Sequence record: OL960581
Strand: one strand, 5' to 3'
From: Escherichia phage vB_EcoM_SA20RB
DNA: 64,000 bases
Of this stretch, positions 3,384 to 5,227 are shown one piece after another. Position 1 is the first letter of the stretch. Each line of letters begins with the position of its first letter. The notes under the pieces are model-generated. The model ran no database searches. It saw nothing but the letters and a program-made list of their open reading frames with translations, and was not told where the DNA came from. A program made the position numbers and the translations under genes.

Positions 3384-3419
3384 CTTATTTCCTGTTTTAA
3401 TTCGTGGTTTTAATATACT

Positions 3420-3429: not shown

Positions 3430-3457
3430 AAAAAGCCCCAACCTTTCGGTCGGGGCT
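3430..3457 (-). terminator. rho-independent terminator (copy B), GAAA tetraloop, ends tRNA/stable-RNA operon
   Basis: Minus RNA AGCCCCGACC-GAAA-GGUUGGGGCU + UUUUU; near-identical to copy A (one loop base differs). Confidence 0.65.
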
Positions 3458-3505
3458 AAGCCTTGCGGCAACCTTGTCGGGGTTCCACCTGCTAAGGCAA
3501 GTGTT

Positions 3506-3600
3506 TGTACGAAACGCCGGGATTCGAACCCGGTTATTAAGCAGTTGACGCTACTCAATATTTTTAAAAGGCCATATCTCGACCATATCCGAACGTTCCG
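3506..3600 (-). ncRNA. tRNA-like stable RNA (rnaC/rnaD-type)
   Basis: Minus strand has 7-bp acceptor-like stem (CGGAACG/CGUUUCG), canonical T-arm CCGGGUUCGAAUCCCGG and discriminator, but an oversized body; no standard anticodon arm. Confidence 0.45.
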
Positions 3601-3771
3601 TCAAAAACGCTACTCGGCTTACGGCAAAGATATTTCCTCGAATCGATAATTCGGTGCGCCGTTTCTGCTGTGATGTAAGAGGGCATCAATAAACGCAAAG
3701 ATTATTAACGCAATTCCTTACTCAGGGAACATCAGTCCGACGACTTACCGGTAGCGACCCGGTTTCTCATT
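3601..3771 (-). ncRNA. putative stable RNA between tRNA-Arg and the tRNA-like element
   Basis: 170 nt non-coding, inside tRNA operon, no ORF with RBS; position corresponds to T4 stable RNA species C/D. Confidence 0.35.
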
Positions 3772-3848
3772 TGGTCGAGGCAGAAGGATTCTAACCTTCA
3801 ACCAACGGATTAGAAATCCGTTGCTCTATACAATTGAGCTATGCCCCG
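3772..3848 (-). tRNA. tRNA-Arg (anticodon UCU), CCA encoded
   Basis: Hand-folded: acceptor CGGGGCA/UGCCUCG, D-arm GCUC..GAGC, anticodon loop UUUCUAA, T-arm GAAGG-UUAGAAU-CCUUC, 3' ACCA. Confidence 0.8.
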
Positions 3849-3851
3849 TAA

Positions 3852-4517
3852 TTAAAATTTCATTTTTCGACCTTTAAACCATCCTTCTGGAATTGGGTCA
3901 GTTTTCTTAATACGTTTAGAAACTTTTTCATCTAATGAATGAATCCACATCATACCAAATTGGGAATTCTTTTCACCCTGTTGATGTTTATTTCTGGCGT
4001 GAGATTCTTTCATTTTATTAATAGTTTCAGGAGTATGGGTCTTACCCAAGAAAGATTTAGTATTTAAAAATTTCTCTCTATACTTAGGATTATCCCAAAG
4101 CTGTTTAAACCTTTCTGAACCCATTTTACGATATTTTTCTTTAAGGTCTGGGTCGTTCTCAAATCTGGTTTTAAAAGCAGCAGCCCCTTTTAAGGAAGCT
4201 TCTTTCTTTTTATCCAAATATTCTTTAGTGTTTAAATGGTCCCAACCACCTTCACCACCTAATTTCAAATTATAAACATCAAGGCGCTTTAAAAACTCTT
4301 CAGTCACAATATTCTTTTCTGACTCAAACATAGAGGTTTTATCGTCAAAGAACTCTAATATTTCTTTAGAGAAATTTTCTATACCATACTTGTCTTGGGC
4401 TCTTTTTAATAATTTACCAGAACCCATATATCCATCATCTAAATTTTCGGTAGAATGAGCGCCTATATAGATTTTATTATTAATTTTATTTGTTATTTTA
4501 TAAGTGTAATGGAACAT
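3852..4517 (-). CDS. segB: GIY-YIG homing endonuclease embedded in tRNA operon
   Basis: 221 aa; N-terminal KIYIGAHST...YMGSG GIY-YIG-type motif; sits between tRNA-Arg and the 7-tRNA subcluster as segB does in T4. Confidence 0.8.
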   Translation of the reverse strand: MFHYTYKITNKINNKIYIGAHSTENLDDGYMGSGKLLKRAQDKYGIENFSKEILEFFDDKTSMFESEKNIVTEEFLKRLDVYNLKLGGEGGWDHLNTKEYLDKKKEASLKGAAAFKTRFENDPDLKEKYRKMGSERFKQLWDNPKYREKFLNTKSFLGKTHTPETINKMKESHARNKHQQGEKNSQFGMMWIHSLDEKVSKRIKKTDPIPEGWFKGRKMKF

Positions 4518-4548: not shown

Positions 4549-4620
4549 TCCCAAAATATGGCCCTGGGTGGAATTGAACCACCATCTGGCGATTATGAGT
4601 CGCTTGCTTGAACCTTCCAG
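4549..4620 (-). tRNA. tRNA-Ile (anticodon CAU; AUA-reading type)
   Basis: Hand-folded cloverleaf; anticodon loop CUCAUAA; T-arm GGUUCAAUUCC; no encoded CCA. Confidence 0.75.
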
Positions 4621-4626
4621 CTACAG

Positions 4627-4699
4627 GGCCTTGATATGCTGATTGACGGAATCGAACCGCCGACCTTCTCATTACAAGTGAGTTGCTCTACCTACTGAG
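4627..4699 (-). tRNA. tRNA-Thr (anticodon UGU)
   Basis: Acceptor GCUGAUU/AAUCAGC, D-arm GCUCAGUAGGUAGAGC, anticodon loop CUUGUAA, T-arm GGUUCGAUUCC. Confidence 0.8.
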
Positions 4700-4706
4700 C
4701 TAAATC

Positions 4707-4793
4707 AGCGAAATTACGGAGGCGATAGGATTTGAACCTATGAGTCGCCGGAGCGACTGCCGGTTTTCAAGACCGGTGCATTAAACCACTCTG
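4707..4793 (-). tRNA. tRNA-Ser (anticodon UGA), long variable arm
   Basis: Acceptor GGAGGCG/CGCCUCC, anticodon stem-loop CCGGU-CUUGAAA-ACCGG, long extra arm, T-arm GGUUCAAAUCC. Confidence 0.8.
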
Positions 4794-4795
4794 CC

Positions 4796-4869
4796 ACGCC
4801 TCCAGTCTCCGCGGCAGGATTTGAACCTGCGACATTCTGCTCCCAAAGCAGACGCTCTACCAAACTGAG
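4796..4869 (-). tRNA. tRNA-Pro (anticodon UGG)
   Basis: Acceptor CUCCGUG/CGCGGAG, anticodon loop UUUGGGA, T-arm GGUUCAAAUCC; separated from tRNA-Ser by 2 nt (dimeric precursor). Confidence 0.8.
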
Positions 4870-4882
4870 CTACACGGAGTAA

Positions 4883-5046
<164 letters not shown>

Positions 5047-5047
5047 C

Positions 5048-5120
5048 CATTCTCGCGCTGGGAATAAAGGACTCGAACCTTTGCATCTAGCAGTCAAAGT
5101 GCTGTGCCTTACCAACTTGG
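5048..5120 (-). tRNA. tRNA-Gln (anticodon UUG)
   Basis: Acceptor UGGGAAU/AUUCCCA, anticodon loop CUUUGAC, T-arm GGUUCGAGUCC; 1-nt spacer to tRNA-Leu. Confidence 0.8.
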
Positions 5121-5227
5121 CTAATTCCCAATTATTAACAAAGGCTCTCAAACAAGAACCCTTGATGATAGATGGTATTAATCAGTGCGGTATGAGTTAA
5201 TAATAACAAATAATTCTTAAAGCATAT

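Follow-up and report, generated by a model that had tools for sequence, protein, structure and literature searches.

The tRNA-like element at 3506-3600 of phage vB_EcoM_SA20RB is almost certainly part of rnaC, and the conserved partner of its acceptor strand is the 5' end of the RNA

Sequence homology indicates that positions 3506-3600 on the minus strand of phage vB_EcoM_SA20RB are almost certainly the 3' two-thirds of rnaC, the species 1 RNA. When T4 rnaC (NC_000866 70908-71046, 139 nt) was aligned with the 64-kb stretch of DNA analysed here (the window), it mapped to 3646..3508 (-) with 137 of 139 nucleotides identical. The rnaC stretch is 100% identical in RB3, where it is annotated as 'rnaC: species I RNA', as well as in RB10, Kha5h and others, and rnaC is annotated in the T4, RB3, RB10, RB33 and Kha5h records. 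The labels in NC_000866 are 'small, stable RNA; species 1 RNA' for rnaC, with T4s001 as the rnaC misc_RNA, and 'species 2 RNA' for rnaD (71053-71171). Megablast of 3440-3860 matched 760 phage records, nearly all of them Tequatrovirus and relatives, and the source of the window is a T4-type phage (Tequatrovirus). The overall explanation that we favor, with a probability of roughly 0.85, is that the locus is the rnaC gene and that its transcript contains an acceptor/T-arm module and would be processed and folded in a tRNA-like manner.

Species 1 RNA of T4-type phages has been known since the 1970s. rnaC is therefore not a new RNA; it has been sequenced and annotated for about 50 years. Its function was given as unknown in papers from 2010 (PMC3014915), 2022 (PMC9697503) and 2025 (PMC12685909). 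Northern blots of T4 infection showed RNAC as a discrete RNA (PMC9697503). With the ends taken from the T4 annotation, rnaC is 139-141 nt long, extending from 3646 to about 3506 (-), such that a size of about 92 nt, given in an earlier note on this DNA, was too small. The note had also placed the element where T4 carries stable RNAs of unknown function, which turned out to be literally so, the RNA being rnaC itself. Positions within the RNA are numbered on the minus strand with 1 = 3646 and 139 = 3508.

The following genes and signals surround rnaC.

3772..3848 (-), tRNA-Arg(UCU), first gene of the distal subcluster (ARAGORN and Rfam)
3653..3770 (-), rnaD (species 2 RNA), directly upstream of rnaC in the same transcript (T4 and RB33 annotations)
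3508..3646 (-), rnaC (species 1 RNA), by mapping of T4 NC_000866 and identity to RB3 and RB10
3434..3457 (-), intrinsic terminator at the end of the tRNA operon, about 50 nt past rnaC, made up of a GC-rich stem of 10 bp and then a U-run

ARAGORN called eight tRNAs in the 64-kb window, all on the minus strand; the seven other than tRNA-Arg (Met/Ile, Thr, Ser, Pro, Gly, Leu and Gln) lie at 4559-5130. The order tRNA-Arg, rnaD, rnaC, terminator on one strand agrees with T4 and with RB33, whose record runs from tRNA-Arg to rnaD ('species II RNA') to rnaC across the matching region. We conclude that rnaC closes the phage tRNA operon, with no further gene ahead of the terminator, and the proposal of a stable RNA downstream of tRNA-Arg in the same transcript was borne out, with rnaD lying between the two. 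The operon transcript of about 1.75 kb is the precursor of eight tRNAs plus the species I and II RNAs and ends past the species I RNA gene (PMC2330249); the terminator at 3457-3434 agrees with this published end. The window and T4 genes are orthologous and share operon position, strand and terminator. They differ by two substitutions: C66 replaces U within a bulge, and G105 replaces A, which turns the U94-A105 pair of T4 into U94.G105.

Searches for known RNA families were carried out on the window. ARAGORN found no tRNA and no tmRNA at 3506-3600. Rfam at gathering thresholds returned the same eight tRNAs as ARAGORN and none at rnaC, hence the tRNA covariance-model search proposed in the note gave no match at that level. 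A permissive Rfam search yielded tRNA-Sec at 3509-3601 as the sole relevant match, with 16.6 bits against a threshold of 47 and E = 1.6. This sub-threshold match follows the pairing drawn in the note. No Rfam family matched rnaC in these searches, E-value mode included.

Structural conservation was assessed with an alignment (A4) of 27 distinct rnaC homologues from at least nine Tevenvirinae genera. GenBank supplied homologues from Karamvirus, Winklervirus, Tegunavirus, Gelderlandvirus, Mosugukvirus, Mosigvirus, Kanagawavirus and a Klebsiella phage type, and a motif scan of IMG/VR was the second source. The elements of the resulting fold are listed in 5' to 3' order.

3639..3646 (-), 5' strand of the acceptor stem, UCGAUUCG, positions 1-8; 2-8 pair with 137-131 and position 1 faces U138
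3569..3638 (-), arm at the D position, positions 9-78, with a 3-bp stem AGG/CCU (9-11 with 76-78)
3593..3610 (-), apical hairpin of this big arm, GCGUUUU-UGAC-GGAACGU, positions 37-54 (37-43 with 48-54)
3561..3568 (-), A-rich single-stranded linker UUUAAAAA, positions 79-86, with AAAAU as its conserved part
3535..3560 (-), 10-bp hairpin at the position of the anticodon arm, 87-96 with 103-112, identified by covariation
3517..3533 (-), T arm CCGGGTTCGAATCCCGG, positions 114-130; 114-118 pair with 126-130 (CCGGG/CCCGG) around the 7-nt loop UUCGAAU
3510..3516 (-), 3' strand of the acceptor stem, CGUUUCG, positions 131-137, identified by covariation and RNAalifold
3506..3509 (-), 3' tail U138-A139-C140-A141; the T4 annotation stops at A139

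The minimum free energy of the 139-mer was -50.2 kcal/mol (z = -4.55). In this fold 131-137 (CGUUUCG) pairs with the RNA's own 5' end, 2-8 (CGAUUCG), and not with 47-53 (CGGAACG); structure prediction, which the note had proposed as a check, thus spoke against the stem that it had drawn. Across the 27 homologues 88.5% of cells were paired for the whole structure compared to 78.0% in shuffles, and 29 pairs showed double changes compared to 16.9 in shuffles, with none of 500 shuffles reaching the observed value and slid controls at about 40%. RNAalifold, which was not seeded by the fold of the window sequence, recovered the same helices with compensatory changes in 26 of 39 pairs, and individual folding gave the same architecture in 12 of 13 divergent homologues. 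On this basis we hold the secondary structure given above with high confidence. Conserved structure in related phages, on which the note had staked its proposal of a stable RNA, is indeed present: the fold is conserved in 27 homologues. The topology is that of a tRNA-like four-way junction whose linkers are spread differently from those of tRNA.

The earlier note had proposed an acceptor-type stem formed by CGGAACG and CGUUUCG. All of the elements that it named are found on the minus strand (CGGAACG at 3600-3594, CGTTTCG at 3516-3510 and the tail at 3509-3506), and the 7-bp complementarity exists, with six Watson-Crick pairs and one G-U pair. The 3' strand was correctly assigned, whereas the 5' partner was not. 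In the 27 homologues this stem was 83.6% paired compared to 85.4% in shuffles, 499 of 500 shuffles scored as high, and a single double change was present. At least three of its seven pairs are mismatched in four to five lineages, including Gelderlandvirus, the Klebsiella type, Mosugukvirus and Tegunavirus. Enforcing the stem in the full-length RNA raised the free energy from -50.2 to -36.9 kcal/mol, a cost of 13.3 kcal/mol, and the pairing probability of C47-G137 was 0.0 compared to 0.905 for C2-G137 in the full-length RNA ensemble. The terminal stem, on the other hand, holds at least five of seven pairs in all 27 sequences and has compensatory changes at three pairs (CG to AU, and GC to or from AU). 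Its mismatches U5.U134 and U6.U133 become U-A and C-G in Tegunavirus, and U-A and U-A in PM2. We conclude that the conserved partner of the 3' acceptor strand is the 5' end of the RNA (3645-3639), not CGGAACG. The true 5' strand lies 45 nt upstream of the one in the note, and CGGAACG lies in the 3' strand of the apical hairpin 37-54.

The reading in the note and that produced by ARAGORN in sister phages amount to a class II pseudo-tRNA of 92-97 nt running from 3601 to 3506, with CGGAACG/CGUUUCG as acceptor stem, degenerate D and anticodon arms, and the 10-bp hairpin serving as a long variable arm. Several observations speak for such a molecule: the 7-bp complementarity is perfect in T4-type sequences, the isolated duplex is more stable than the terminal stem (-6.6 compared to -3.1 kcal/mol), the 97-nt fragment does fold in this way, ARAGORN calls a tRNA with these boundaries when the A-run contains 4 or 6 A residues, and there is the weak tRNA-Sec match. 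However, the stem lacks covariation, is broken in four to five lineages that keep the terminal stem, and carries the 13.3 kcal/mol penalty in the full-length RNA. Moreover, its 5' strand sits in a hairpin with covarying pairs at five of seven positions, and the would-be G18G19 pairs with C23C24, with compensatory changes. The annotated RNA also starts 45 nt upstream, and the Northern probe for RNAC covers that 5' part, upstream of the start in the note (PMC9697503). We therefore consider the pseudo-tRNA extremely improbable.

A related explanation is that the RNA is bistable, such that the 3' strand alternates between its terminal partner and CGGAACG in T4- and Karamvirus-type phages as a structural switch that might operate, for instance, while the RNA is transcribed or processed. 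In about 20 of the 27 sequences CGUUUCG is complementary to either partner, and the internal duplex is intrinsically the more stable one. Against this, the alternative pairing is not conserved beyond the T4- and Karamvirus-type lineages, its ensemble probability is about zero, and by the time the 3' strand is transcribed the internal strand would already be tied up in its own hairpin. These points make a switch highly unlikely, and we retain the terminal stem as the acceptor stem of rnaC.

The earlier note had described the central body as oversized. It is large, but it is a defined four-way junction with an arm of about 60 nt at the D position and a 10-bp hairpin. Above its 3-bp stem, the D-position arm contains an internal loop (A12A13/G74G75) followed by an irregular hairpin of about 60 nt (14-73). 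Of its 20 pairs 11 show double changes and 88% of cells are paired; the arm is kept in the individual folds of 12 of 13 divergent homologues, and G10, G11, A12, G75, C76 and C77 are invariant in all 27. The apical hairpin is paired in 95.8% of cells with double changes in five of seven pairs, and the probability of G39-C52 is 0.95. The 10-bp hairpin has double changes in eight of 10 pairs and 95% of cells paired; it is closed by a near-invariant hexaloop, CGUCAA (3550-3545, positions 97-102). This 10-bp stem with its 6-nt loop occupies the position of the anticodon arm, in agreement with the proposal of a non-decoding RNA lacking a normal anticodon arm. As there is no anticodon loop, rnaC cannot decode. 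A single nucleotide, A113, separates the 10-bp hairpin from the T arm.

The canonical T arm recognized in the note is present at 3533-3517. The T stem is 100% paired in the homologues with double changes in two of five pairs. In the 64-kb window the 11-mer GGTTCGAATCC has a single exact match, in the T arm of rnaC, and its six one-mismatch matches all fall in the T arms of called tRNAs compared to 0.64 matches expected. These counts place the rnaC T arm beyond chance. In the Winklervirus and Kanagawavirus homologues the T loop is replaced by UGCAUSC, with C121 kept. Within the tail, U138, C140 and A141 are invariant across the 27 homologues; the tail reads UACA here, UCCA in five of 27 (the Klebsiella type and PM2) and UUCA in Tegunavirus.

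rnaC resembles canonical tRNA (RF00005), class II and tRNA-Sec in particular, in several respects. Its ends form an acceptor stem of 7-8 bp, its 5-bp T stem bears the loop UUCGAAU, its arms meet in a four-way junction, its gene lies in a tRNA operon, and its 3' tail follows the pattern U-N-C-A, with UCCA in some of the homologues. The differences lie elsewhere. In place of a D loop rnaC has a 3-bp stem and the arm of about 60 nt, and in place of an anticodon loop it has the 10-bp stem and 6-nt loop. It has an 8-nt linker at the site of nucleotide 26 and a 'variable region' of 1 nt, its acceptor stem contains two U.U mismatches, and it fails tRNA covariance models.

The loop regions contain a candidate tertiary contact.

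3599..3604 (-), UUGACG, positions 43-48, proposed kissing-loop strand and exact complement of CGUCAA at 97-102

In the 27 homologues 99.4% of the cells for 43-48/97-102 are paired. Only two positions vary, and they change together: A46G with U99C in four Klebsiella-type sequences, and C47U with G98A in two Tegunavirus sequences. One-sided substitutions are found in none of the six pairs, and the sole unpaired cell, in PM2, combines a one-base deletion in the hexaloop with U43G. An unbiased scan was also carried out over all antiparallel 4-nt windows, with minimum values of 95% pairing and one double change. The top matches were the nested helices of the fold; among the non-nested interactions, the kissing loop alone combined 100% pairing with two double changes. 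A second, weaker non-nested window joined 74-77 with 117-120 and holds G74C/U120G; four weaker windows with a single double change were also present, one of which overlaps the pairing in the note. As two independent double substitutions keep the complementarity, these data suggest a kissing loop, and UUGACG and CGUCAA probably kiss within the same molecule.

The covariation proves selected complementarity and not pairing in cis, leaving an alternative in which UUGACG and CGUCAA pair between molecules, either in rnaC dimers or multimers or with another RNA that bears the motif. The big arm (about 26 bp) is also far longer than the 10-bp hairpin, so that a kiss in cis would need a sharp bend. 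Conserved internal loops and bulges of the big arm could provide this bend, however, and both loops reside in one molecule at high effective concentration. We thus regard intermolecular pairing as unlikely and favor the intramolecular kissing loop.

A further contact may exist at the elbow. The unpaired G75 at the base of the big arm and C121, the third base of the T loop, are invariant in 27 of 27 sequences, even where the T loop is UGCAUSC (Winklervirus and Kanagawavirus), and G74 changes to C with U120 to G in exactly the sequences with this loop. By analogy to the G18-psi55 and G19-C56 elbow contacts of tRNA, which G74-U120 and G75-C121 of rnaC resemble, we tentatively suggest a G75-C121 pair like G19-C56; with one or two events underlying it, we place this pair at somewhat below even odds. 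Lack of conservation of the T loop in Winklervirus and Kanagawavirus weakens any model with a canonical elbow.

The acceptor/T-arm module is reused in the tmRNA domain, in bacterial YrlA/Y RNA modules, in mascRNA and in plant-virus tRNA-like structures, and such tRNA-like modules let RNase P, the CCA-adding enzyme and T-loop modifiers recognize non-decoding RNAs. rnaC has neither sequence nor covariance-model similarity to any Rfam family of RNAs with tRNA-like domains. Unlike tmRNA it has no tag ORF and no pseudoknot ring, and no tmRNA was called by ARAGORN or Rfam. The ends of YrlA form a Ro-binding stem rather than an acceptor stem, whereas those of rnaC form an acceptor stem. The HIV TAR-TAR* and ColE1 RNA I/RNA II kissing complexes each consist of two fully complementary loops of about 6 nt, as would be the case in rnaC, where the complementarity is kept by compensatory changes. 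Both loops of rnaC reside in one molecule, in contrast to those complexes, and the likeness is one of geometry only.

The genomic setting of rnaC was compared among genera. In Karamvirus, Winklervirus, Gelderlandvirus, Mosugukvirus and Kanagawavirus, a tRNA array harbors the homologue in a slot of about 150 nt, flanked on one or both sides by a tRNA at a distance of only a few nucleotides; examples are the intervals tRNA-Trp/tRNA-Gly and tRNA-Phe/tRNA-Trp. In none of these five genera is rnaD adjacent to the homologue. An RNA that the tRNA-processing machinery frees would be expected to lie within tRNA arrays in this way. Motif scans of IMG/VR and metagenomes under relaxed settings recovered the same lineages and no further ones, and BLAST from PM2 added only Kosakonia phage 305, in which the loops are unchanged. 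One candidate divergent homologue (L038) was rejected as a GC-rich chance match. As far as tested, the rnaC family is confined to Tevenvirinae of enterobacteria.

This distribution bears on whether the region is instead a decayed pseudo-tRNA, a spacer that separates or terminates the tRNA operon, or a coding region for small proteins. T4 tolerates deletion of its tRNA region in laboratory hosts, as a dispensable spacer would allow, and mechanical ORFs of 24-81 aa overlap the region, several records calling a 'hypothetical protein'. Strong purifying selection with compensatory changes, presence in at least nine genera in varied genomic contexts, and invariant loops are all at odds with a spacer, as is an abundant stable RNA (PMC9697503). 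Single-nucleotide indels among near-identical phages would break any ORF, and on account of these indels and of the covariation small-protein ORFs were rejected. We find it hardly credible that the region is a spacer, a relic or a coding sequence rather than the gene of a structured RNA. A Shine-Dalgarno-like GAGGA (positions 8-12) followed by a mini-ORF was also considered and rejected: its G10 and G11 are taken up in pairs with C76 and C77, and the reading frame would comprise two codons.

The ends of rnaC form an acceptor-type stem of 7-8 bp stacked on the T arm, equivalent to the acceptor/T-arm part of tRNA, and we propose that this module would let the host tRNA-maturation machinery excise rnaC from the polycistronic transcript. 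By analogy with tRNA, the 5' end would be made by RNase P cleavage on the 5' side of the acceptor stem and the 3' end by trimming, with CCA repair perhaps acting on the conserved U-N-C-A tail. The excision model is based on the anatomy of the RNA, its position between tRNAs in other genera, and classical work on T4. In RNase P minihelix substrates the acceptor and T stems stack coaxially over about 12-13 bp, and the molecule also carries a T loop and a 3' tail that is single-stranded. The corresponding elements are present in rnaC: stacked stems of 7-8 and 5 bp, the T loop and a single-stranded UACA tail. The notion of an RNase P and CCA-enzyme substrate, already put forward in the note, thus fits the modeled anatomy of rnaC. 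With two U.U mismatches in the acceptor stem and U1 facing U138, the RNase P site could lie before position 1 or before position 2. Classical T4 work (Abelson, McClain, Apirion) reportedly dealt with processing of species 1 RNA by RNase P. For maturation of T4 tRNA precursors, a 2024 review gives the general picture only (PMC11143913).

Once released, the compact tRNA-like fold would make rnaC metabolically stable. The UUGACG loop would kiss the hexaloop CGUCAA, closing the RNA into a rigid ring, and at the elbow a pair may form between C121 in the T loop and the unpaired G75. What the mature RNA would do is a matter for speculation. Most likely rnaC is neither a base-pairing regulator nor a translational adaptor. 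The leading candidate role in our model, although rather unlikely in itself, is that of a protein-binding tRNA mimic that presents the acceptor/elbow surface while its 'anticodon' end is masked. The more specific version, a closed tRNA-shaped decoy or adaptor whose acceptor/T-arm/elbow face, with G75-C121 standing in for G19-C56, is aimed at a host or phage tRNA-binding protein while its 'anticodon' end is locked by the kissing loop, is doubtful. If it were true, candidate targets would be a tRNA-targeting defence nuclease or an enzyme of tRNA maturation or modification. Mimicry of the tRNA-Lys anticodon loop was considered as the basis of a PrrC or PARIS decoy. The heptamer CUUUUAA (3570-3564), which we take to equal the anticodon loop of tRNA-Lys(UUU), lacks conservation beyond Tequatrovirus and Mosigvirus, and its first bases take part in pairs with A9-G11; this candidate was rejected.

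rnaC remains among the oldest orphan RNAs in molecular biology. If the present reading is true, it represents an RNA family that is conserved across enterobacterial Tevenvirinae and absent from Rfam. The covariation-backed fold, the candidate kissing loop and the candidate elbow pair provide concrete mutants, and the alignment provides a seed for a family that has no matching Rfam model and that occurs in the tRNA arrays of at least nine genera.

Some database records contain features with the same boundaries as the internal-acceptor model. MK327928 and NC_054920 carry features of 94-96 nt named 'tRNA-Lys(ttt)' and 'tRNA-???(aa)', and ARAGORN reproduced both calls. The A-run (3561-3565) contains 4 or 6 A residues in those phages compared to 5 in the window, and beyond the A-run the aligned rnaC differs from that of the window at one base, in G2133 only. 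Length polymorphism of the A-run thus turns the ARAGORN calls on and off. We conclude that the 'tRNA-Lys(ttt)' and 'tRNA-???' calls are a threshold artefact on a tRNA-like RNA, and that the internal-acceptor reading is an artefact that ARAGORN-based pipelines deposit in GenBank in the same form.

The A-run in the linker of rnaC, the species 1 RNA gene, occupies positions 3561–3565 of the window (minus strand) and consists of 4, 5 or 6 A residues among phages. The length of this run decides whether ARAGORN reports a 94–96-nt 'tRNA-Lys(ttt)' or 'tRNA-???(aa)' in rnaC. We conclude that these tRNA features are spurious. They nevertheless stand in GenBank records MK327928 and NC_054920. Features of this type were placed over rnaC in two of the homologous sequences from other phages as follows:

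L036, 450–543: ARAGORN-type tRNA feature over rnaC
L037, 447–542: ARAGORN-type tRNA feature over rnaC

Protein annotation also extends over this gene. Between positions 3404 and 3698, mechanical ORFs of 24–81 amino acids on both strands overlap rnaC, and many GenBank records carry one or two 'hypothetical proteins' there; these entries are probably over-annotation of an RNA gene.

In five rnaC homologues from Winklervirus and Kanagawavirus (L004, L011, L018, L032 and L034), UGCAUCC or UGCAUGC stands in place of the canonical T loop UUCGAAU. Despite this replacement, the T stem, the length of the T loop and its third base (C121) were retained. These homologues also carry a G74C change, and the internal loop at the foot of the big arm, i.e. 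the arm in the D position of rnaC, is rearranged in them.

The species 2 RNA, rnaD, lies directly upstream of rnaC (3653–3770, minus strand), and its fold was less convincing (z = −1.43). Comparison of RB33 with the window revealed more variation in rnaD than in rnaC, and in other genera rnaC occurs unaccompanied by rnaD. A convergent adaptive SNP has been described in rnaD of a T4-like phage (2025; PMC12685909). On the other side of rnaC, ahead of the terminator, lies a GC-rich segment (3460–3505, minus strand; CUUGCCUUAGCAGG...GCCGCAAGG) that is conserved and could form a hairpin; a few of its positions are changed relative to T4, and it may serve, for example, in 3' processing or as a protection element.

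The tRNA-Arg(UCU) allele of the window (3772–3848, minus strand) is very unlike T4 tRNA-Arg, with differences over most of the tRNA body, and by sequence match it is of the RB32/RB33 type. The flanks of tRNA-Arg and the rnaD/rnaC region are nearly identical between the window and T4. As the segB homing-endonuclease gene directly adjoins this divergent allele, the arrangement suggests that tRNA-Arg is exchanged as a cassette.

Among the matches of a megablast search with a 421-nt query (3440–3860) were six, from phages vB_EcoM_F1, FN, JEP6 and SG1, in which the query was split into two pieces over 785 bp. Approximately 364 bp is inserted in these phages somewhere between tRNA-Arg and the terminator, and the insertion is annotated as a hypothetical protein.

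Elsewhere in the window, ARAGORN identified a tRNA-Met(CAT) at 4559–4630 (minus strand). The corresponding T4 gene is annotated as tRNA-Ile, a label that presumably reflects the known lysidine-modified CAU anticodon.
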